This document shows positions 93-32,178 of a DNA stretch of 52,156 nucleotides, piece by piece. Positions within the stretch are counted from its first letter, which is position 1. The number at the start of each line of letters is the position of its first letter. The translations under genes and the position numbers were made by a program. Origin of the DNA: a bacterium (lineage in GTDB: Bacteria > Patescibacteriota > Saccharimonadia > CAILAD01 > BJGX01). The stretch covers positions 1 through 52,156 of the forward strand of contig JAHFOQ010000002.1 in the NCBI GenBank assembly GCA_023261595.1. Reading direction: 5' to 3'. The notes under the pieces were generated by a model, which saw only the letters and a list, made by a program, of their open reading frames with translations, made no database searches and was not told the DNA's origin.

Positions 93-139
93 TCTTTGTG
101 TTACAATCTGAGGGTCACACCAAGTCTAAGGGGGCTAAG

Positions 140-553
140 GTGAAGATCTTTGTATGTTGTAGCAAAACATTTTATCCAAAAGTAGGACCAATCAAGCACC
201 AATTAGAGGCGATGAATCATACCGTAACCTTACCAAATAGTTATGACAATCCCGGTCGTGAAGTTGAAATGCATTCAGCAGGAGCAAAAGAGCATGCCCA
301 GTGGAAGGCCAGTATGATTCGTCTACAAAAACAGAAGGTTGAAGTGTGTGATGCAATATTAGTGCTAAACTTTACCAAGAATGATCAACCAAATTACATT
401 GGTGGAGCGACCTTTTTAGAAATGTATATGGCATTCGAGTTGCATAAGCCAATTTTTCTCTATAACGATGTACCCGATGGGATGTTGCGAGATGAGATTC
501 TTTGCTTTGAGCCAACTGTTATTACTGGCGATCTTCATTTGGTACAGATCTAG
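140..553 (+). CDS. nucleoside 2-deoxyribosyltransferase-like protein
   Basis: ORF track gives 98..553. An in-frame GTG at 140 lies 5 nt after the RBS AAGGGGG (128-134). An extended -10 (TGTTACAAT, 99-107) overlaps the 98 start, so 140 is preferred. The N-terminal KIFVCCS strand and IGGATFLEMYMAFELHKPIFLYN resemble Nuc_deoxyrib_tr-like Rossmann proteins (from memory). Confidence 0.55.
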   Translation: MKIFVCCSKTFYPKVGPIKHQLEAMNHTVTLPNSYDNPGREVEMHSAGAKEHAQWKASMIRLQKQKVEVCDAILVLNFTKNDQPNYIGGATFLEMYMAFELHKPIFLYNDVPDGMLRDEILCFEPTVITGDLHLVQI

Positions 554-573
554 AATATCTAGATCTTTTTTTT
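546..573 (+). terminator. intrinsic terminator of the 140..553 gene
   Basis: An 8-bp stem AGATCTAG/CTAGATCT (546-553/559-566) with loop AATAT is followed by a T-run to 573. It overlaps the stop codon. Confidence 0.6.
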
Positions 574-574
574 A

Positions 575-583
575 TGCTAAAAT
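575..583 (+). promoter_or_regulatory. extended -10 promoter (TGCTAAAAT) for the GC-rich non-coding transcript
   Basis: TG at 575-576 and TAAAAT at 578-583. The predicted TSS near 590 coincides with the jump in G+C. Confidence 0.45.
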
Positions 584-589
584 TTAGTT

Positions 590-1461
590 GAGACACCGCC
601 GGCTAAATGAGATCGATCAGGCAAAAATCGGCCTCTGGTTTGTTAGCGCGATCCAAAGCAATTTGGATCGAACTGTGGTTTCAATATGACGTGTGTTGAG
701 GTGGACCAATCGGCACGTTAACACACAACCCTTAGGATGGTGCCGACTGTCCTTTGTGGTAATATGTACCTAACCCGCAAGCGTTTCGGGTTCTACAACG
801 GTTTGGCCTTACCGCAACTCGCTACTCATCATTAAAAAACTTGCACCCATCACCAATCAGCGAGAGAAAAAGCAAACGCTCCTCGACACCCGGATAATCC
901 GCCAACCGGCGGACGGGGTAATTGGTTATCGAAACAAGTGTGGTGTGTGCTTCGGCGCCCAGCGACATTGGGAAAAGCACCGCAAACTAGCTCGACGGTT
1001 TAAGCCCAGCCGATACCATCCAAGGTTAATGGGATTAGATACCCCGGCAACCAAGGTAAAGAAATGGGTACGTGGATTGTGGATCTGCAAAGACAGCCAG
1101 GACTAAGGCTTAGAAGCAGCCTAAGGTTGAAAGAGTGCGTAACAGCTCACTGGCCGAGTAAGTCCGCGCCACCGCACATAGATGTCTTGGCGGTGCCGGA
1201 GACGTGCGCCGAATTGGCTTTAGGGCCCACCATGCATCAACTCCACTGCCAGCAGCCGCGGTAACAGTAGTGTAGGGTGGAGGGCTGTGCCAAGCAGCTT
1301 GCCACCATATTCTGCCTTGGCCCGTGCGCAAGCACCACGCTGAAAGGGCAGAAAACTAATAGCGGCAGGATGAAGGCCTTCGGGCTGTAAACTGCAACAA
1401 CGCCGGTGTGGCGGACAGAGACGGATTCCGACCCCGTTTCTGTCCGCCCTCCGGTTTTTTT
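590..1461 (+). ncRNA. large GC-rich structured non-coding RNA candidate carrying rRNA-like segments (unclassified)
   Basis: About 55% GC against about 35-40% in the flanks. It is bounded by the promoter at 575-583 and the terminator at 1403-1461. It contains only short, overlapping ORFs without RBS. Structure signals: a GCAA-tetraloop hairpin at 649-670, UUCG hairpins at 947-958 and 1375-1386, and pseudoknot topology at 691-746. rRNA-like blocks lie at 1031-1047, 1091-1169, 1247-1264 and 1372-1391. Confidence 0.6.
1403..1461 (+). terminator. strong intrinsic terminator ending the GC-rich transcript
   Basis: GGCGGACAGAGACGG (1410-1424) pairs with CCGTTTCTGTCCGCC (1434-1448). The stem is extended by CCGG 1403-1406 pairing with CCGG 1451-1454. 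T7 follows immediately at 1455-1461. Confidence 0.75.
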
Positions 1462-1513
1462 ATTTTGCGTGCGCTTTTTGTTCGCCAGCAATTATTCATA
1501 GTACAATATAGCA

Positions 1514-3667
1514 ATGAGCAAAATACTCGATGACCTTAACGAGCAACAACACCAAGCAGTACTCGCAATCGAAGGGCCAGTACTTATGCTGGCGGGCGCG
1601 GGTTCGGGTAAAACCAAAACCCTTACTCACCGCTTAGGATATTTAGTACAAGAAAAAAAGGTTAGTCCTGCTAATATATTGGCAGTTACATTTACTAACA
1701 AAGCAGCCGGAGAAATGCGTCGTCGGGTTGCTCGTTTATTACGCTTTGATGAAAATAATTCTCAATACCTGCCGTTTTTAGGTACTTTTCATTCTATTGC
1801 CAATAGAATTCTCCGTCGTGAAGCCGCTGAGATTGGATACAGTAGCAACTTTCTTATTTACGATATGTCAGATAGTCAGTCGCTGATAAAAAAAATCCTT
1901 AAGCAACTTAAAATTGATGAAAAACAAATAACACCAAGTGGAATTAGCAATGCAATTTCGAGCGCAAAAAATGAACTTGTAGGTCCAGACGAATATAAAA
2001 CTTTTGCCACTGGAAGAGTACAAGAAGCAGCAGCACAAGTATATCCCGTTTATCAGCGCGAACTTCGCAAGGCTGGAGCAATGGATTTTGACGATCTTAT
2101 TATGAAACTTACTCTCTTGCTTATAGAAAATGAAACAATTAGAGAAAAATATCAAAAACAGTTTGAATACATTCTGGTAGATGAGTATCAAGATACCAAC
2201 CAGGCACAGTATCAAATGGTTAAATTACTTGCTCAAAAGCATCATAATATTTGTGTTGTAGGAGATGACTGGCAAAGTATTTATTCTTGGCGCGGAGCAA
2301 ATTACGAAAATATTTTAAACTTCGAAAAGGATTATCCAGAAGCAAAAGTAATAAAATTAGAACGTAATTATCGCAGTACACAAAATATTTTAGATGCTGC
2401 CCATGCTGTTATTACACGCAATACATCACGATCAGAAAAGAATCTATGGACCGAGCAAGGTGCAGGAGAACAAATACATATTGTAGGAGTTCGAGACGAA
2501 CTCGACGAAGGGCGATTTGTGATAGAAACGATTAAAAACCTACAAAAACAGGATAGTAGATTAGGATTACACGACTTTGCTATTTTGTATCGCACGAATG
2601 CCCAAAGTCGTAGCTTAGAAGAAGCCTTTTTGCGTTATGGCGTACCGTATCAAATTATTGGTGGTGTACGTTTTTATGAAAGGAAAGAAATAAAAGATGT
2701 GTTGGCATATTTACGATATATTTATCAACCCAACGATGCAGTGAGCCTTGCACGAATTATTAATGTGCCCGCACGGGCTTTAGGACAAAAATCGCTCAGT
2801 GTGTTTTATGATCATGCAGCAAAATACGAACTACCATTGCTCGAAGCCATGGCTCAAGCCGGTCAAATTGATGGGTTAAGTGCACGAGCTAGCGCTAGTT
2901 TGGTGGAATTCGGAGCTATGATAACGAGCTTGGGAGAACTGAGTAAAACTGTTCCCGTGAGTGAATTTATCGATGCGGTGCTAAAACGCAGTGGGTATTT
3001 AGAATATTTAAATGACGGAAGTTTGAGCGCAGAAGAACGTGTTGAAAACGTACGCGAGCTTATCTCTGTTGCGAAAGCATATGACACGACTGGTCTAGAT
3101 GAGTTTTTGTCTGAGATATCCTTAATTGCAGATGTTGATAGCCTAAAGAACGGTGGCGAAGCAGTTGTTATGATGACACTTCATTCTGCCAAGGGCTTAG
3201 AATTCAATACTGTTTTTATCTGTGGTATGGAAGAAGGAATTTTTCCTCATAGTAGAACATTTTTTGAACCAAGCGAATTAGAAGAAGAACGGAGGCTTTG
3301 TTACGTAGGAATGACTCGCGCCAAAGAACGACTTTTCTTGTTACATGCCCATGGTAGATTATTATATGGCACAACCCAACATAACGTGCCATCTCGTTTT
3401 CTGAGTGAGATACCAGATAATTTGGTTGTGCATGACAGTAAAAATACTATCGCAAGTATGCAGTCTCAACATTCGGTTCAAACGGAATATAGTGATGATT
3501 CGTTTATGCCAGATCTGCCTAGCTTAACCTCTGGTGATAGAGTAATGCACGAAAGTTGGGGTGAAGGCGAAGTAATAAATGCGGGTGAATATGAAATTAC
3601 GGTAAAATTTGCGAGTGTAGGGCAAAAAACGCTTAATCTCAACTTTGCTCCACTAAAAAAATTATAG
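1514..3667 (+). CDS. pcrA: ATP-dependent DNA helicase PcrA/UvrD family
   Basis: 717 aa. Walker A AGAGSGKT, DEYQDT, and the VGDDWQSIYSWRGA, RNYRST, YRTN, TLHSAKGLEF and LCYVGMTRAK motifs. TACAAT at 1502-1507 lies 6 nt before the ATG, so the gene looks leaderless. Confidence 0.92.
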   Translation: MSKILDDLNEQQHQAVLAIEGPVLMLAGAGSGKTKTLTHRLGYLVQEKKVSPANILAVTFTNKAAGEMRRRVARLLRFDENNSQYLPFLGTFHSIANRILRREAAEIGYSSNFLIYDMSDSQSLIKKILKQLKIDEKQITPSGISNAISSAKNELVGPDEYKTFATGRVQEAAAQVYPVYQRELRKAGAMDFDDLIMKLTLLLIENETIREKYQKQFEYILVDEYQDTNQAQYQMVKLLAQKHHNICVVGDDWQSIYSWRGANYENILNFEKDYPEAKVIKLERNYRSTQNILDAAHAVITRNTSRSEKNLWTEQGAGEQIHIVGVRDELDEGRFVIETIKNLQKQDSRLGLHDFAILYRTNAQSRSLEEAFLRYGVPYQIIGGVRFYERKEIKDVLAYLRYIYQPNDAVSLARIINVPARALGQKSLSVFYDHAAKYELPLLEAMAQAGQIDGLSARASASLVEFGAMITSLGELSKTVPVSEFIDAVLKRSGYLEYLNDGSLSAEERVENVRELISVAKAYDTTGLDEFLSEISLIADVDSLKNGGEAVVMMTLHSAKGLEFNTVFICGMEEGIFPHSRTFFEPSELEEERRLCYVGMTRAKERLFLLHAHGRLLYGTTQHNVPSRFLSEIPDNLVVHDSKNTIASMQSQHSVQTEYSDDSFMPDLPSLTSGDRVMHESWGEGEVINAGEYEITVKFASVGQKTLNLNFAPLKKL

Positions 3668-5054: not shown

Positions 5055-5846
5055 ATGAAGATTAAAGCTAATAAAGCATTTGGCCAGCATTGGTTGCGTG
5101 ACAAAACCGCCTTATTTGATGTGTTAACAGCAGCCGAAATTACCAAAAATGACACAGTTTTAGAGGTTGGCCCTGGTCTTGGTACATTGACCGAAATTTT
5201 GTCTGAATCTGCAAAAGAAGTAATTGCGGTGGAGGCAGATACGAAACTTGTCGGGCCTTTAAGGGTGCAGTTTTTTCAAAAACCAAATGTTACTTTTGTA
5301 GAAGCAGACATTCTTAAATTTGATCTTACAACGTTGCCATCTCAGTATAAGGTGGCAGCAAATATACCGTATTACCTTACCTCTAATTTAATTCGGACAT
5401 TGTTAGAAGCGAGCAACCCTCCGCAGGTTATGGCGCTACTAATTCAGAAAGAAGTTGCTGAGCGAATTACTGCAAAGCCTGGTCAAATGTCAGTCTTGGC
5501 TTTTTCTGTTCAGTATTACGCAGCTGCTCAGATAATTCGAGTTGTTGGTAAAGAGCTGTTTGATCCACCACCCAAAGTAGAATCAGCAATTATACAAATT
5601 ATCCGTCGCCCACAACCAGCATTTGAAGCAGATAATGAAAAGCTATTTAAATTAGTAAAAGCTGGGTTTGGTGAAAAACGCAAAATGTTACGTAACTCGC
5701 TAGCAGGTGGTTTGCAGTTAGAAACCAATCAAGTTGAAGGGTTATTGAAAGAATCTGGTTTGTCAGCAACTGCTCGTGCACAAGAGCTTAGTTTGGATGA
5801 TTGGCATCGATTGTATAGTAGTTCTTTAGCTTTACAGGTTCTCTAG
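5055..5846 (+). CDS. rsmA: 16S rRNA (adenine1518/1519-N6)-dimethyltransferase RsmA/KsgA
   Basis: 263 aa. FGQHWL, VLEVGPGLGTLT, ANIPYY. An extended -10 TGGTACAAT ends 6 nt before the ATG. Confidence 0.9.
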   Translation: MKIKANKAFGQHWLRDKTALFDVLTAAEITKNDTVLEVGPGLGTLTEILSESAKEVIAVEADTKLVGPLRVQFFQKPNVTFVEADILKFDLTTLPSQYKVAANIPYYLTSNLIRTLLEASNPPQVMALLIQKEVAERITAKPGQMSVLAFSVQYYAAAQIIRVVGKELFDPPPKVESAIIQIIRRPQPAFEADNEKLFKLVKAGFGEKRKMLRNSLAGGLQLETNQVEGLLKESGLSATARAQELSLDDWHRLYSSSLALQVL

Positions 5847-18345: not shown

Positions 18346-18354
18346 AAAAGTGAA

Positions 18355-18378
18355 GAGCCCCTGCAGGTGCAGGGGCTC
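18355..18378. terminator. GC-rich hairpin between convergent alaS and the high-GC gene
   Basis: GAGCCCCTGCA-GG-TGCAGGGGCTC. On the minus strand it is followed by the T-rich TTCACTTTTCTATTTT. Confidence 0.5.
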
Positions 18379-18411
18379 GGGGTTTACGCCACGCGGGCGT
18401 TTGGGTTGGCG

Positions 18412-18873
18412 TCAGCCGCCGAGGGGGAGTCCGAACTGGAGTCCCTCTGTGCTGACGCAGGTGGCAGGGGCCGAATCCTGCTTGTCGAAGGGAACTGCCT
18501 GGAAGGCCGCGATTCCGAACGACTGTCCGTCGGGGCTGACCAGGACCGGAGCGGTGCAGCGCTTCTGCGCGGCCTCGCCCTGGGTCCAGGTTGCCACGAG
18601 CTGATCGCCGGACCAGACGACGCTCATCGACTTGAGCTCGGGGACACCTTGTCCCTTCATCGTGTCGTTGAAGCGAGCCCGGAGGACTGCCTCGGCCTTG
18701 CTGCGCGTCTCCTCGGGGTGCGAGGTGTCCCGCTGGGACATGACGAGGAGCGCGATGCCCACCAGCGCGATGGCGATGGCGAACCAGATCCAGGCGAGGC
18801 TGATGCCGCGCGTGGGCTGGTCGGTGTCGTTGTCCGGCGACTCGACGGACGGCTTGTTCTGGGTGGCGGTCAT
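18412..18873 (-). CDS. bitopic membrane protein encoded by a high-GC island; diverged homolog of the adjacent 19064..19654 gene
   Basis: 153 aa. RBS GAAAGGA lies 7 nt upstream of the ATG. One TM helix (ISLAWIWFAIAIALVGIALLVM). The ectodomain aligns with the neighbour at SMSV, RCT.PV, PD.Q, VP.DK.D and CV[ST][ST], including a conserved Cys pair. About 65-70% GC. Confidence 0.65.
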   Translation of the reverse strand: MTATQNKPSVESPDNDTDQPTRGISLAWIWFAIAIALVGIALLVMSQRDTSHPEETRSKAEAVLRARFNDTMKGQGVPELKSMSVVWSGDQLVATWTQGEAAQKRCTAPVLVSPDGQSFGIAAFQAVPFDKQDSAPATCVSTEGLQFGLPLGG

Positions 18874-18917
18874 AGGACCGTCCTTTCTGTTTGGTGCGGG
18901 TACGAACTAACACAAGC

Positions 18918-18946
18918 ATAGTAGCACAGATTTATATTTAAGTCAA
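18918..18946 (-). promoter_or_regulatory. near-consensus sigma-70 promoter driving the high-GC gene
   Basis: On the minus strand: TTGACT (18946-18941), a 17-nt spacer, then TACTAT (18923-18918). It sits in AT-rich backbone just outside the island. Confidence 0.55.
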
Positions 18947-19063: not shown

Positions 19064-19654
19064 TTATGACGTTGTTGTTTCACCGAGTCTATCTGGGGAA
19101 ATCGATGTTACACATTTGTACAAAGTAGTATCGAGTTTATCGACAGGCACAGGTTCGATCTTAGGTGTCCAGTACAAGTAATGTTGTTTATCTGGTGGGT
19201 TAACTGGTACCGTACAGCGTGCATTTCCCTGATAAAAACTTAGTACAAGCTTTTTGTAATCAACATACGATACTGACATGCTATCAACGTTGAGTTGATT
19301 GTTAGCAGGCAGATTCCGATTAATCTCAATAGCCGAACTCTTCAGTTCGCGCTCAGCTGTAGTCCGCACGTTCTCTCTATCGTGAGCGTCAGAAATAAAG
19401 AGAAAAATTACCGTAATGATACCAACAAATATCAAACTAGCAACAACCCAAGCCATAGTAGACCTAAAAGATCGCTTAGGCAGATTGCTTTTTACAGCTT
19501 CAGAAGAAGTTATGGAATTAGAAGAGTTTTCAAAATCACGTTCTTCGGCATGTTTGCGCGCAGACTCTCGTTCTTCATCAGTAAGCACACGACCGCGCGC
19601 TGCCGCACCGTGTTCTCTTACTTTACCAATTTGCTGGTCAGTAGGCATGTGCAT
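19064..19654 (-). CDS. bitopic membrane protein (low-GC paralog of 18412..18873)
   Basis: 196 aa. A ~65-aa cytoplasmic N-terminus is followed by a TM helix (MAWVVASLIFVGIITVIFLFI) and an ectodomain with a Cys pair (RCTVPV … KCVTS). Confidence 0.6.
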   Translation of the reverse strand: MHMPTDQQIGKVREHGAAARGRVLTDEERESARKHAEERDFENSSNSITSSEAVKSNLPKRSFRSTMAWVVASLIFVGIITVIFLFISDAHDRENVRTTAERELKSSAIEINRNLPANNQLNVDSMSVSYVDYKKLVLSFYQGNARCTVPVNPPDKQHYLYWTPKIEPVPVDKLDTTLYKCVTSISPDRLGETTTS

Positions 19655-30149: not shown

Positions 30150-31982
30150 ATGCTTACAGAAGCAATTGCGCTGGCGCTCAAATACGGCACATACGTTTTT
30201 GATGAACATAGCATTATCGATAGAGAGAATGCAATATTTTGTTTTGATGATGGTGATTTTACTCCAAACTATTCACGCAAAGATTTTGCTGCTTCAGAAG
30301 TATCAGTACTTGATACGTTGAATCAAAATTTTCAAGCTTTAACGCCACAAGAGTTGCAACATAGAAGTCTTGGCCCGCACTATATGAGCACACTCTTAGG
30401 TACTATGCACCGAAAAGATGCATTGCGTAGAGCACGTAAACAAACATTCTTACCAGTACAACCTGAATGGGAACAGAGAGAAGTGGAATATGAGCTTACT
30501 CTGTTAGGAACGTGGCTGATGCGAGAAGCTCAACGTAGTTTGCCATTCGGTTGTGTAGAAGCAGCGATTGGCTTTAGCCAGAAAAGCTTAAAGGAGCGAG
30601 AAGATAGAATTAAGGTTGTTTTTGAGCAACTTAAGTGTAGTAATTGGTATACACTCAATGAGTATCGTGCCAAAAATTTTGCACAAGAAATGCGACATAA
30701 TTCGCTTGAAGTACTACCTCGTCAGTACGGCCAGTACCCTTCGAGCCTTGTAAGGCCAAATTGCTTAGGTATTAGTGCGATGCTCTGTGGCTGGTGCGAA
30801 TTGGCCGGTGTGGAATATATGTATGTTAATACCGTTCGAGATAGAAGCAGTACCCTCGCTGAGATGTTTGTAGAGACCATAAAACATTCTATTGAGTGGT
30901 GCACAGAAAACGAAATTACTATTCCAGAAATGGATCTGTTTGCAATGCAATCTCAGTTAGAAGAGTTTAAAACTCCGTATACAGCAAACAGTTTTCATCA
31001 CTGTGTAGCGGTAAAGATGGCAGACGATTATTGGTTAATGCTCGATCCATACCAAGAAATATTGTTACCAATCTCGCCCGTGAATCATGGAAGTGGAGAA
31101 ACTATCGATGAAACCTTTAGGCTTCTCACGAGAATGGCAAAACCTTTACCTGGAATAGTATTGCAATATGAATCAGAAGATTACGAAGCAATTCGAGGAC
31201 CGGCAGAAAGTCACTTAAGGGATAGTTTTATGTCTGCTGTTGATGCAAAACTCTATATAAAGTATTTTGGCGATGAACCAAATAGGTTATTCGGTGCAAT
31301 TTATGTTGCTCTAGAAAATGGATGGTTTAGTAGTTTTTGGGGTGATAATTGGGAGTCGTGTGGTGTCTCGAGTAGCCACCTAACATTTCCAAATAAAAAT
31401 CGAAAAATTAACCAAAGAACTTTTTATGATTGTATGTATGGTTGGGTTGGGGCATCAATACTGAACCTAACCACAGAATATCGGTTTTCAAGTATTGAGA
31501 AATTGAAGGCCTATTATTCTCAAAATGATGGTTTTGCCTATAGATTTAGAGAATTGTTTCAGGTTCTACCAATTATTCAACTTGTGCATAAGATGCAAAA
31601 GTATGCATACGATGATAAATCGAAATATAATCATTTTGTGGTTGAATTTGGTAATCCTGCCTTTCAGTTAGCATGTAATACACTCAATCATCTCTCAGCT
31701 TGGGATGTTGAGTTTTCTGAATTGATCGATCCATTTGATATTGCGAAGTTTAGTGGGAGTCAATTAATCTGGCACGATGCGCTCGCTAGATGGTATAATA
31801 CTGACCAGCCTCAGTTAGACCCTGAGTGGGAAGCATACCTCACCTCTCAGCTAAGTAAACTACATATGTACCAATGGCATTTCCAAACCCGGCAAATGCT
31901 TACCCATCCCGACCAGGAGGAACCCAACGATGCCGAGAATGACAAAGGAACAGAAGGCAGCAGAGATCAAGAAGCTGCGTGA
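30150..31982 (+). CDS. hypothetical 610-aa protein with a possible transglutaminase/papain-like Cys-His-Asp core
   Basis: RBS AAAGGAG lies upstream of the ATG. Candidate triad: NCLGISAMLCGW … FHHCVAVKMADDYWLMLDP. The last ~25 codons lie inside a GC-rich island. Confidence 0.55.
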   Translation: MLTEAIALALKYGTYVFDEHSIIDRENAIFCFDDGDFTPNYSRKDFAASEVSVLDTLNQNFQALTPQELQHRSLGPHYMSTLLGTMHRKDALRRARKQTFLPVQPEWEQREVEYELTLLGTWLMREAQRSLPFGCVEAAIGFSQKSLKEREDRIKVVFEQLKCSNWYTLNEYRAKNFAQEMRHNSLEVLPRQYGQYPSSLVRPNCLGISAMLCGWCELAGVEYMYVNTVRDRSSTLAEMFVETIKHSIEWCTENEITIPEMDLFAMQSQLEEFKTPYTANSFHHCVAVKMADDYWLMLDPYQEILLPISPVNHGSGETIDETFRLLTRMAKPLPGIVLQYESEDYEAIRGPAESHLRDSFMSAVDAKLYIKYFGDEPNRLFGAIYVALENGWFSSFWGDNWESCGVSSSHLTFPNKNRKINQRTFYDCMYGWVGASILNLTTEYRFSSIEKLKAYYSQNDGFAYRFRELFQVLPIIQLVHKMQKYAYDDKSKYNHFVVEFGNPAFQLACNTLNHLSAWDVEFSELIDPFDIAKFSGSQLIWHDALARWYNTDQPQLDPEWEAYLTSQLSKLHMYQWHFQTRQMLTHPDQEEPNDAENDKGTEGSRDQEAA

Positions 31983-32178
31983 GAGCGGCATGAGTGATGC
32001 TGACATCATCGCTGAGAACGGCAACCTGCAAGCCGGCTTCGTCTGGCTGAAGGAGAACCCAGGCAGCGACGCCAAGGCAGAGAAGCCCAAGCAGCCGGTT
32101 GGTTCTGGATCGATGCCGGCAACCCCGCAACCCGCCAAGAGCTACGCCGCGGAGTTCCGCACCCCCACGCTCACGTAG
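31930..32178 (+). CDS. small hypothetical protein encoded by a GC-rich island (possible HTH)
   Basis: 82 aa. A perfect SD AGGAGG lies 8 nt upstream of the ATG. About 60-68% GC. It overlaps the end of the 610-aa ORF by 53 nt. SGMSDADIIAENGNLQAGFVWLKE is helix-turn-helix-like and the tail is P/A-rich. Confidence 0.45.
   Translation: MPRMTKEQKAAEIKKLRESGMSDADIIAENGNLQAGFVWLKENPGSDAKAEKPKQPVGSGSMPATPQPAKSYAAEFRTPTLT

Follow-up and report, generated by a model that had tools for sequence, protein, structure and literature searches.

The window analyzed here, a stretch of 52,156 nucleotides of a Saccharibacteria genome (contig JAHFOQ010000002.1), carries a GC-rich non-coding segment in which short pieces resembling 16S and 23S rRNA follow one another. 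Is this element a broken rRNA gene, a decaying insertion, or an RNA gene in its own right, and, in the latter case, what are the ribosomal pieces for? The original prediction, made from the nucleotides of the window, left two options: a novel structured RNA that mimics rRNA sites, or a rearranged relic of foreign high-GC rRNA. Judging from sequence comparisons, the element is most likely an RNA not described so far, in which sites of the ribosome are imitated.

Locus and Expression Signals

No ORF-free gap in the window is larger than the non-coding one at 554-1513 (960 nt), and no other large gap is GC-rich. The G+C content is 0.534 across 585-1461, compared to 0.395 for the entire window. 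The longest ORF within the gap has 84 aa and none of its ORFs is conserved; the homologues described below differ by indels of any length and share no conserved ORF, and the element is thus considered non-coding. High GC is usual for structured RNAs in AT-rich genomes, and there is no sign of foreign origin. It should be noted that a clear high-GC foreign island is found elsewhere in the window, at 18350-18920.

The coordinates of all features are given in Table 1. The terminator that precedes the element belongs to the upstream 137/151-aa gene (98-553), and the same arrangement, an upstream terminator and the element promoter, was found in L002, L087, L090 and L082. The transcription start of the window element is predicted at ~590. 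The extended -10 motif T[AGT]TGnnAnAAT is present in the same position in all nine copies of the element, and strong terminator hairpins (-34 to -38 kcal/mol), which differ in sequence, were found in all six complete copies. The gene behind the downstream promoter block is pcrA in the window and dut in L002 and L087; the block is also found in L086, a relative that does not have the element. Thus, the element has its own promoter and intrinsic terminator, conserved across homologues, as in independent bacterial ncRNA genes, and it looks like a transcription unit of its own, set between the terminator of the preceding gene and the promoter of the next; its transcription is predicted from these signals. 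The GC-rich non-coding unit with a promoter and a terminator that was originally proposed is therefore confirmed.

The neighbors have housekeeping roles (ppa, the 137-aa Nuc_deoxyrib_tr-like gene, dut, pcrA), and their order is kept in relatives that do not have the element. No linked partner gene was found among them, which counts against the decoy function discussed below. A functional link to the upstream 137-aa gene was considered and rejected, because members of this family are common in Patescibacteria that do not have the element, and because the element may stand on either side of the gene.

Table 1. Features of the element and of its boundaries in the window.
Feature	Position	Strand	Description
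Intrinsic terminator of the upstream gene	546-573	+	9-bp stem followed by a T run; 5' boundary of the RNA unit
Extended -10 promoter TATGCTAAAAT	573-583	+	TG 575-576, -10 hexamer 578-583; directly after the upstream terminator
5' extension	589-767	+	Only in the window genome; structure from a single sequence
Conserved 5' domain	768-887	+	Hairpins P1, P2, P3 and conserved block GAGAGAAAAAGCAAACGCUCCUCGAC (862-887); from alignments
Variable middle region	888-1028	+	Compound hairpin 888-919, C(UUCG)G hairpin ~944-960, linker
16S h24 tip mimic (790 loop)	1029-1049	+	Stem U1030-G1033/C1043-G1046; loop AUUAGAUAC 1034-1042
23S H42-H43-H44 mimic (GTPase-associated center, GAC)	1075-1170	+	Rfam RF02541 local match
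Conserved middle block GCACRUAGRU...	1174-1240	+	Helices GCACR/YGUGC and GRUGUAC/GURCAUC
16S h18 upper hairpin mimic (530 loop)	1241-1282	+	CUCCAC 1241-1246/GUGGAG 1277-1282; loop UGCCAGCAGCCGCGGUAA 1247-1264
Small conserved hairpin GCUGU-GCCAA-GCAGC and insertion	1284-1362	+	Hairpin 1284-1298; insertion only in the window genome, with GCAA hairpin 1324-1335
Whole 16S h16 mimic (406-436)	1365-1395	+	Stem GCAG/CUGC; rRNA-like internal loop GAUGAA/GUAAA; GGCC-UUCG-GGCU
Intrinsic terminator of the element	1402-1461	+	~20-bp hairpin 1402-1454, then U7 1455-1461; -37.3 kcal/mol
Conserved promoter block of the next gene	1466-1513	+	Outside the RNA; 3' boundary; near-identical in the window and L002

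rRNA-Like Modules

Four rRNA elements are copied, all in sense orientation: 16S h24 with the 790 loop, 23S H42-H44, 16S h18 with the 530 loop, and 16S h16. Their order (790, 23S GAC, 530, h16) is collinear with no rRNA gene, as noticed originally, and rRNA-like sequence totals only ~190 nt of the element. Compared to shuffled sequences, local alignments gave z-scores of 10.7 for h18, 8.3 for h16 and 4.3 for h24. The two loop blocks reported at the outset proved to be exact copies: window positions 1032-1044 are identical to E. coli 16S 785-797 (13/13), and positions 1247-1264 to 16S 516-533 (18/18); in the homologue L082, 23 of 24 positions match 16S 776-799. For h16, window positions 1372-1391 match 16S 413-432 at 19 of 20 sites, and the module matches Arthrobacter 16S at 23 of 25. 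The original prediction had drawn this block wider (16S ~375-430); the part corresponding to 406-436 (h16) is significant, but the rest is not, and the GCAA hairpin at 1324-1335 is merely h15-like.

The 23S-like block was detected by the Rfam model RF02541 (LSU_rRNA_bacteria), which matches 1075-1170 with 73.2 bits (E=1e-19; model positions 1071-1165 of 2925). Window positions 1107-1121 are identical to 23S 1062-1076 (15/15), and positions 1137-1159 match 23S 1091-1113 at 21 of 23 sites. The block is therefore real, but it had been misplaced: it corresponds to E. coli 23S ~1036-1125 (H42-H44), not to 1150-1220. The weaker 23S-like similarity that had been suspected on both sides was not found, as 585-1000 and 1165-1240 are no more rRNA-like than shuffled sequence. 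In the ribosome, L11 and L10 bind to H42-H44, which is also the site of thiostrepton.

No further rRNA-like blocks above chance were found in comparisons with the E. coli, Arthrobacter and Paenibacillus rrn operons. The sequence AAGCAACGC is that of h31 (the 966 loop) of Paenibacillus 16S, a lead without statistical support. Two other resemblances are also treated as leads only, i.e., GGCGGACGGGGUAAU (908-922) to 16S 104-121 and GCAAGCGUU (777-785) to 16S 544-552. The duplicated CCAAGGT that was reported around the 790 block is present (1020-1026 and 1051-1057); it is absent from the homologues, and the duplication is thus probably incidental.

Checking homologues for covariation, as had been proposed originally, yielded compensatory changes in the modules. 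When four element copies of GAC were aligned with E. coli 23S, 94% of the cells were in pairs, and both sides have changed in 9 of 29 pairs, which was matched by none of 500 shuffles; the GAC copy keeps every H43 and H44 loop nucleotide, and its secondary structure is held by compensatory changes. The h24 module has compensatory changes in four of five stem pairs (six homologues), and the h16 module in four of eight pairs, with no non-canonical pairs among 32 cells. In the h18 module, the loop length of 20 nt is retained in five homologues, positions 517/534 covary (G-C <-> C-G), and a covariance model built from this region of the element also recovers E. coli h18. These covariation statistics are descriptive because they come from only nine sequences, six of them complete. 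The rRNA-like loops stay identical to rRNA while the stems covary, which is indicative of selection at the RNA level. This pattern favors the structured RNA mimicking rRNA sites among the two options considered originally.

Element-Specific Parts

The rest of the element is not rRNA-like above chance. The 5' extension (589-767) is absent from every homologue and belongs to this part; it holds the 9-bp GCAA hairpin (649-670) and two interleaved helices (691-699/718-726 and 710-716/740-746), predicted within a block that has no homologue. These structures and the C(UUCG)G hairpins at ~947-958 and 1375-1386 are all present where the original prediction had seen them. A second extended -10-like sequence, TGGTAATAT (757-765), aligns with the promoter of L002. 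The core common to the copies is ~490-550 nt long (768-1461 in the window); thus, the originally proposed length of ~870 nt holds for the window genome, but not for the conserved unit.

In the conserved 5' domain, P1 is formed by CCCG-CAAGCGUUU-CGGG (774-790) and P2 by CGGU...ACCG (799-814), with a U-A to C-G change among homologues. P3 pairs CUCGCU (818-823) with AGCGAG (859-864) around an A-rich loop; this variant is shared by the window and L082, and L002, L087 and L090 have CUCCC/GGGAG. The compound hairpin at 888-919 takes the place of the loop GGAUAAGCAACGCC of other homologues. The middle block (1174-1240), also not rRNA-like above chance, has two pairs changed on both sides in helix 14-20/70-76 and one in helix 7-11/37-41, and would have pseudoknot topology if both helices form. 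The stem of the small hairpin at 1284-1298 occurs as UCUGC/GCGGA, AUUGC/GCAGU and GCUGU/GCAGC among the copies.

Homologues and Module Turnover

Eight more homologues were found in related Saccharibacteria assemblies, giving nine copies, six of them complete. Four of the five complete homologues other than the window are ~490-545 nt long, and L088 is ~790 nt long. Module indels defeat full-length alignment by MAFFT and RNAalifold. The variation of the module set between relatives is the most informative feature of the element. For example, GAC is missing from L002, the 790 module from L087 and L090, and h16 from L088; L084 and L088 have H43 and H44 replaced. The order of the 790 and h31-like modules varies. 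Some modules are visibly degenerate, i.e., the 530 loop in L092, GAC in L084 and L088, and the 790 loop in L088 and L095; the substitution A1067U is present in L095. The constraint on loops is therefore not absolute, given the mutated loops in L088, L092 and L095.

The element was found in a small Saccharibacteria clade. Close relatives without it are L086, L094 and the P0122 contig (the latter by gene map only), which makes the element dispensable. A genome scan guided by PcrA found one element-bearing relative (L002) among 80 loci, and L003-L006, with PcrA 53-70% identical, have no element by BLAST or by a covariance model. A pattern scan of metagenomes for the 530 mimic together with an element-specific stem returned two contigs only, one already in the set. 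In phage and plasmid collections, BLAST found no homologues of the element; only real 23S genes match the GAC module.

Comparison with Known RNA Families

Rfam 15 was run permissively on the window region and six homologous loci. The local LSU match described above is the only ribosomal one, and the other entries reported are two microRNA-model matches with E above 1. A 23S gene or pseudogene would be collinear over most of the 2.9-kb model; here, the match covers only 1071-1165 of 2925, and the flanks are not 23S-like. The 16S segments are not in their native order, and no SSU match was found even at E up to 10 with the Rfam SSU model, which does not report the short 16S modules. The matches are thus short and local, in the wrong order, and with covarying stems; we agree that the element can be taken neither for an rRNA gene nor for a simple pseudogene. 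No matches were found in Rfam 15 for RNase P, tmRNA, SRP, 6S, OLE, GOLLD, ROOL, raiA, HEARO, or group I/II introns, and literature searches found no described RNA family of such organization, as originally suspected.

Ribosomal-protein leaders mimic rRNA, and are the closest precedent. The L10 leader mimics H42-H44 (review cited as ref. 43 of PMC11109978). This rplJ leader (Rfam RF00557) copies the same H42-H44 region as the element, in shape and in the key nucleotides of the protein-binding site. However, such leaders are short cis 5' UTR elements with one site each, located in the operon that they control, whereas the element is free-standing, carries up to four or five mimics from both subunits, and has no ribosomal-protein neighbors; its own terminator precedes the next gene. 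In addition, it copies functional loops (530, 790) that do not belong to the classic primary binding sites of ribosomal proteins. No leader family, including L10, was detected by cmscan at E up to 10 in the window and up to 1 in the homologues.

Three other groups share single properties with the element. (i) Sponge RNAs (CsrB/RsmZ, 6S) titrate proteins by imitating a natural nucleic-acid ligand, and CsrB is a modular array of hairpins. The element likewise carries ligand mimics, four rRNA hairpins with kept loops and covarying stems; however, CsrB/RsmZ repeat one motif and 6S mimics promoter DNA, while the element presents different rRNA sites and has no homology to them in sequence or structure. 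(ii) OLE, GOLLD, ROOL and raiA are also long, GC-rich, ORF-free, covarying intergenic regions with narrow phylogenetic ranges, but none is built from rRNA copies. (iii) Type III antitoxins (ToxI-like) are pseudo-substrate RNAs that neutralize a protein and are fast-evolving and patchy; they are tandem repeats beside an endoribonuclease toxin, whereas the element has no repeat by eye and no toxin-like neighbor.

Discussion

The explanation that we favor, although we would give it slightly less than an even chance, is an independently transcribed, highly structured and fast-evolving ncRNA that presents rRNA-like hairpins as trans-acting decoys for ligands of rRNA sites. The element-specific helices would form a scaffold carrying a changeable set of ribosome-site hairpins (23S H42-H44, the 530 loop of h18, the 790 loop of h24, h16 and, possibly, the 966 loop of h31). 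These hairpins would compete with real rRNA for the molecules that recognize such sites, and would thereby titrate these molecules. Of the partners that can be predicted, L11 and/or L10-(L7/L12), on the GAC module, are the most concrete. For the 530, 790 and h16 modules, the ligands would be factors, enzymes, toxins or antibiotics that recognize these hairpins. That single modules are gained, lost or decay between close relatives points to a set of ligands that is not the same in every strain. Against a decoy, the 530 and 790 hairpins belong to composite pockets in the ribosome, and many ligands would not bind either hairpin on its own; furthermore, we know of no antibiotic or toxin that targets h16.

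An unlikely elaboration is that the RNA is a shield, in which interchangeable decoys soak up ribosome-targeting toxins or antibiotics, or a weapon delivered into the host cell. As an 'immunity RNA', a shield might act against thiopeptides or ADP-ribosylating effectors that target GAC, or against ligands of the 530 or 790 loop, coming from actinobacterial hosts or competitors. A few dozen RNA copies reach a micromolar concentration in an ultrasmall cell, which would make a shield workable. In the weapon version, ribosomal proteins or translation factors of the host would be sequestered by the delivered RNA. If either version is true, module turnover between strains would record an arms race.

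A structured RNA with a function unrelated to rRNA ligands, into which rRNA hairpins were co-opted as folding or stabilizing modules, appears somewhat unlikely to us. The hairpins would have been copied from the most abundant RNA of the cell, and the host RNA might be an unknown RNP, a ribozyme, or a protective or processing scaffold. This would agree with the lack of rRNA similarity across much of the conserved core (the 5' domain, the middle block), and with the loss or divergence of modules in L002, L084, L088 and L092 while core, promoter and terminator persist. However, stability alone gives no reason for rRNA-identical loops of 13-18 nt on changing stems, and UUCG or GNRA hairpins would stabilize equally well.

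We consider it quite improbable that the element is a non-functional relic or a selfish insertion, in which pieces of own or foreign rRNA were patched into the intergenic region, for example through illegitimate recombination or RNA-templated repair, and have been decaying since. All helices remain paired through compensatory changes, and the element-specific helices covary too; every module is in sense orientation relative to the element promoter, and the promoter (all copies) and terminator (six complete copies) are conserved despite the turnover of sequence. The GAC part is at most 82% identical to real 23S genes (BLAST, phage and plasmid collections), yet ~93% identical between element copies (read from alignment A3). 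These observations outweigh, in our opinion, the patchy presence and absence in close relatives, the visible degeneration (the 530 loop of L092, the 790 loops of L088 and L095, GAC of L084 and L088) and the foreign island elsewhere in the window, all of which a relic would explain. The decaying foreign high-GC rRNA relic that the original prediction had kept as its second option is thus disfavored by the covariation, and no sign of foreign origin was seen. Decoy DNA for homing endonucleases or introns (insertion sites S516 and S788) was also rejected, as the selection observed concerns RNA pairing, and a decoy that draws cleavage to the chromosome would do harm.

A cis-acting leader or attenuator, controlling the downstream pcrA or dut via terminator read-through, is suggested by the position of the element, which stands on the same strand immediately upstream of dut or pcrA in four of the six complete copies. 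We find this very improbable, because the downstream gene's own conserved promoter follows the terminator and is present without the element as well, the terminators are very strong with no alternative antiterminator evident, and the element precedes the 137-aa gene in L088, a DUF7768 gene in L092 and another gene in L090.

It is hardly credible that the element supplies rRNA pieces in trans or is a ribosome-associated RNA, even though the non-collinear short pieces of both subunits resemble the fragmented, scrambled rRNA of apicomplexan mitochondria (PMC10948144), and mitochondrial rRNA genes of dinoflagellates and chlorophyceans are similarly arranged. Such mitochondrial fragments together make up all of the rRNA and become part of ribosomes (PMC10948144), whereas the element has few pieces, carried by a single transcript, that vary between relatives. 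Of the essential sites, GAC, the 790 loop and h16 each have at least one close relative in which the element does not carry them, and L086 and L094 have no element at all. The rRNA operon of the organism lies outside the window. A circularly permuted S4 five-way junction, suggested by the h18-then-h16 order, could not be supported.

An assembly chimera of a Saccharibacteria contig with rRNA reads is a negligible possibility: the Logan contigs L082, L083 and L095 do all end at one and the same position of the GAC copy, which indicates that rRNA-identical k-mers disturb assembly, but the gap has equal length (960 nt) in three independent assemblies. Moreover, many projects have diverged homologues with compensatory changes in this neighborhood, and the diverged homologues come from more than eight separate sequencing projects in all. 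A synthetic 16S spike-in or amplicon artifact was likewise rejected; the 515F and 806R primer sites do occur, but their order is wrong and they lie within diverged, covarying homologues.

To our knowledge, rRNA mimicry is known only as short cis leaders, by which a single ribosomal protein regulates the operon that encodes it. A free-standing RNA in which several of the most conserved functional hairpins of both subunits are shuffled, and swapped between close relatives, would be a new architectural class of ncRNA. Such RNAs are likely to be under-assembled and under-reported in metagenomes, because rRNA-identical k-mers break short-read assemblies inside the element, as in the three contigs above. 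Saccharibacteria are ultrasmall epibionts with reduced genomes, and we are aware of almost nothing that is known of their RNA-based regulation. They are naturally transformable (PMC10633639). If the element is a decoy, it would offer a direct route to the molecules that recognize isolated 530, 790, h16 and GAC hairpins in vivo, for which ribosomal proteins, assembly factors, toxins and antibiotics are the candidates, and it might bring to light a novel kind of resistance or of host manipulation.

Locus and rRNA-like hairpins

The element sits in a 960-nt gap (window 554-1513), which is the longest without an ORF in the 52-kb window and the sole long one that is GC-rich; the longest ORF within it has only 84 aa. 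The G + C fraction is 0.534 at 585-1461, compared to 0.395 for the whole window, and the flanking signals listed in the table agree with the original prediction of a GC-rich non-coding unit bounded by a promoter and a terminator. A separate conserved pcrA promoter lies 3' of the element's terminator. It should be noted that folding energy alone is weak evidence for a structured RNA, because the z-scores against shuffled sequence were -3.4 for the plus strand and -2.2 for the minus strand.

Features of the window, with identities to the E. coli rrnB operon, the reference for block comparison
Feature	Window	rRNA positions	Identical	Remark
Gene 5' of gap	98-553			True start probably 140; weak Pfam Nuc_deoxyrib_tr match
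Terminator of upstream gene	546-573
Extended -10 promoter TATGCTAAAAT	573-583			Directly 3' of upstream gene's terminator
790 loop, h24	1032-1044	16S 785-797	13/13
H43	1107-1121	23S 1062-1076	15/15
H44	1137-1159	23S 1091-1113	21/23
530 loop, h18	1247-1264	16S 516-533	18/18
h16	1372-1391	16S 413-432	19/20
Element's terminator	1402-1461			~20-bp hairpin and U7; -37.3 kcal/mol
pcrA/uvrD, gene 3' of gap	1514-3667

The Rfam search of the region returned a local match of window 1075-1170 to bacterial LSU rRNA (model positions 1071-1165, 73 bits, E = 1e-19) and nothing else. The matched segment comprises H42-H43-H44, which form the GTPase-associated centre (GAC), i.e., the thiostrepton site and the platform for L11 and L10. 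The 23S-like block proposed earlier is real; however, its numbering was wrong, the correct E. coli 23S positions being about 1036-1125. The 16S-like blocks exceeded shuffled controls with z-scores of 10.7 (h18), 8.3 (h16) and 4.3 (h24), and similarity to rRNA was not above chance in such controls at 585-1000 and 1165-1240. Every block runs in the sense direction with respect to the promoter, and the block order, 790, GAC, 530, h16, cannot be produced by deletion from an rrn operon; the suspected non-collinear mosaic of 16S- and 23S-like segments was thus confirmed. Every block is a complete hairpin, more than a conserved word. The GAC copy retains all three helices, and in the h16 copy the basal stem, internal loop and tetraloop stem of 16S 406-436 are all present. 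A 6-bp stem is retained in the h18 copy, and the five other homologues also have the exact 20-nt loop; in the window, the fully complementary 3' strand is located further downstream.

Homologues and modularity

Using a genome collection, contigs encoding relatives of the two flanking proteins and one metagenome pattern scan, we found eight further copies (n = 9 with the window, whose host was assigned to Candidatus Saccharibacteria). Those on the related contigs L002, L087, L088, L090 and L092 are complete, and those on L082 (with L083), L084 and L095 end at the contig end inside the GAC. The window's arrangement, including the 960-nt gap, is also present in independent ENA and Logan assemblies; this recurrence and the existence of diverged homologues in many projects rule out an assembly chimera, a concern raised in the original prediction.

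The element is absent from the close relatives L086 (137-aa protein 68% identical) and L094 and from the contig encoding protein P0122, and from all more distant Patescibacteria loci examined, by BLAST and by covariance model. Beyond its six training sequences, the covariance model has a single match, to the true h18 in E. coli 16S (E = 0.01), which shows the mimicry independently. Phage and plasmid collections contained no homologue, the GAC part being matched only by true 23S genes (≤82% identity).

The neighbourhood pyk-tpiA-ppa ... pcrA is constant and the exact slot of the element is variable: 3' of the 137-aa gene in six copies, 5' of it in L088 and elsewhere in L092. L002 (5558-6001) and L087 (1328-1779) have a dUTPase-like gene between pcrA and the element; its absence from the window represents gene gain or loss directly beside the element. 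The pcrA-side promoter block CGTGCGCTTTTTGTTCGCC...TAGTACAAT (window 1466-1513, L002 5506-5557, L086 3420-3470) is more conserved than the surrounding coding DNA and is retained where the element is absent. Its -10, TACAAT (1502-1507), stops 6 nt short of the pcrA start codon (ATG at 1514), suggesting that the pcrA mRNA is leaderless; the same applies to dut in L002.

rRNA-like modules in the nine copies (530 and h16 columns cover the six complete copies; L082, L084 and L095 break off inside the GAC)
Copy	GAC	790	530	h16
Window	yes	yes	yes	yes
L002	absent	yes	yes	yes
L087	yes	absent	yes	yes
L090	yes	absent	yes	yes
L088	H42 kept, H43/H44 replaced	loop mutated	yes	absent
L092	yes	yes	degenerate	degenerate
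L082	yes	yes, 23/24 identical to 16S 776-799
L084	H42 kept, H43/H44 replaced	yes
L095	yes, with A1067U	loop mutated

The loop GGAUAAGCAACGCC recurs in an internal hairpin and, in L087 and L090, also in the terminator loop; its order relative to the 790 module differs between subgroups. It includes a 9-mer of the 16S h31 (966) loop in its Paenibacillus form, so that a fifth mimic is plausible, with a match that lacks statistical support. The 10-nt loop of the internal hairpin, AUAAGCAACG, is likewise the terminator hairpin loop in two homologues (L090, reverse complement, 464-477; L087 element 500-513), and this recurrence suggests that the motif itself is a selected, putative binding site.

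Window positions 589-767 and 1299-1362 have no counterpart in any homologue, and comparison with L082 shows that the former was inserted 3' of the promoter, ahead of the conserved 5' hairpin. Since both are unmatched, the conserved unit is about 490-550 nt long, and the 870 nt of the window are a lineage-specific enlargement; the predicted length of ~870 nt holds for the window, but not for the family. Within the element there is a second extended -10-like sequence, TGGTAATAT (757-765), which lines up with the promoter of L002; hence the window element might yield two RNA forms, long and core-length.

Selection on the RNA

The promoter motif T[AGT]TGnnAnAAT is found just 5' of the first conserved nucleotides in 9/9 copies. 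The six complete ones all end in a terminator, with energies of -34 to -38 kcal/mol and a sequence that varies from copy to copy. In the h16 stem, 4/8 pairs are compensatory and 0/32 cells are unpaired, with tip variants GGCC-UUCG-GGCU, GCGC-CUUG-GCGU and GCGC-CUCG-GCGU and basal variants GCAG/CUGC, GGAA/UUCC and GAAG/CUUC; in the h24 stem, 4/5 pairs are compensatory. Across four element copies and E. coli 23S, 94% of GAC cells are paired and both sides changed in 9/29 pairs, a result reached by 0/500 shuffles; in slid controls the paired share fell to 29-42%. Positions 517/534 of h18 switch between G-C and C-G. As read from the sequences, H43 retains a non-Watson-Crick pair at 1060/1078, which is U-U in E. 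coli and A-A, G-G or A-C among the copies, and the adjoining pair covaries.

Element-specific helices covary, as do the rRNA-like stems: the 5'-domain hairpins P2 (CGGU/ACCG, CGGC/GCCG) and P3 (CUCGCU/AGCGAG, CUCCC/GGGAG), and also the small hairpin 3' of h18 and two middle-block helices, vary. With nine sequences these statistics are descriptive, and the pattern is uniform over every helix examined. No ORF is conserved across homologues and indels are of arbitrary length; therefore, the element encodes no protein.

Other features of the window

A GC island of about 0.67 (genome, 0.395) at 18350-18920, just after alaS, carries a 153-aa minus-strand ORF (18412-18873) with a membrane anchor, next to a low-GC ORF of similar layout (19064-19654, 196 aa). 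The island resembles DNA that was recently acquired by horizontal transfer from a high-GC genome, perhaps that of the actinobacterial host. A local bump of 0.55-0.59 at 31930-32178 covers the end of a 610-aa ORF and a charged-residue-rich 82-aa ORF.

Discussion

A cis leader of the downstream gene is unlikely, given that this gene has its own promoter, kept in relatives lacking the element, and is not the same in all copies. A neutral relic is contradicted by stem covariation, conserved expression signals and uniform sense orientation of the modules, and this speaks against the rearranged foreign rRNA relic offered as an alternative in the original prediction. Block order, tiny coverage and the absence of each "essential" site from some close relative rule out an rRNA gene or pseudogene, as had been anticipated for a functional gene or simple pseudogene, and likewise rRNA pieces supplied in trans. 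What remains after these exclusions is an independent structured RNA, in which the selected feature is the hairpin display of rRNA-identical loops. That the element represents a real family of structured ncRNAs under selection is, in our view, highly probable.

The element matched none of the Rfam 15 families, and full-text literature searches turned up no free-standing RNA of shuffled rRNA hairpin copies, consistent with the earlier impression that no such family had been described. The systems closest to it in concept differ in defining respects: ribosomal-protein leaders are cis-acting and mimic one site each, CsrB and 6S sponges follow another ligand logic, and scrambled mitochondrial rRNA fragments are true rRNA.

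Molecular mimicry would be the simplest mechanism: ribosomes, or nascent rRNA, would have this RNA as a competitor for the molecules that bind the copied sites. A decoy or sponge in general is a tentative proposal, to which we give slightly less than even weight. The best-defined prediction is binding of the GAC module by L11 and/or L10-(L7/L12); the isolated 58-nt GAC RNA binds L11 and thiostrepton, and the region is also mimicked by the L10 leader. The other modules (530, A-site; 790, P-site; h16, mRNA entry; possibly 966) are functional-centre loops and not classic primary r-protein sites, so their ligands could be factors, modification or assembly enzymes, toxins or antibiotics. ksgA/rsmA, encoding the 16S dimethyltransferase that docks near h24, lies 3.6 kb downstream (5055-5846); its proximity is probably coincidental, because synteny is identical in relatives without the element. 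A putative conflict-related decoy would fit the rapid module turnover, patchy distribution and epibiotic life on Actinobacteria. Antagonism between host and epibiont is documented (PMC13622651).

Three independent Logan contigs stop at the identical base of the GAC copy (...GCGTAACAGCTCACTGGTCG; L082 3846, L083 3569, L095 1708). rRNA-identical k-mers break de Bruijn assemblies; therefore, elements of this rRNA-hairpin kind are probably under-assembled in metagenomes.
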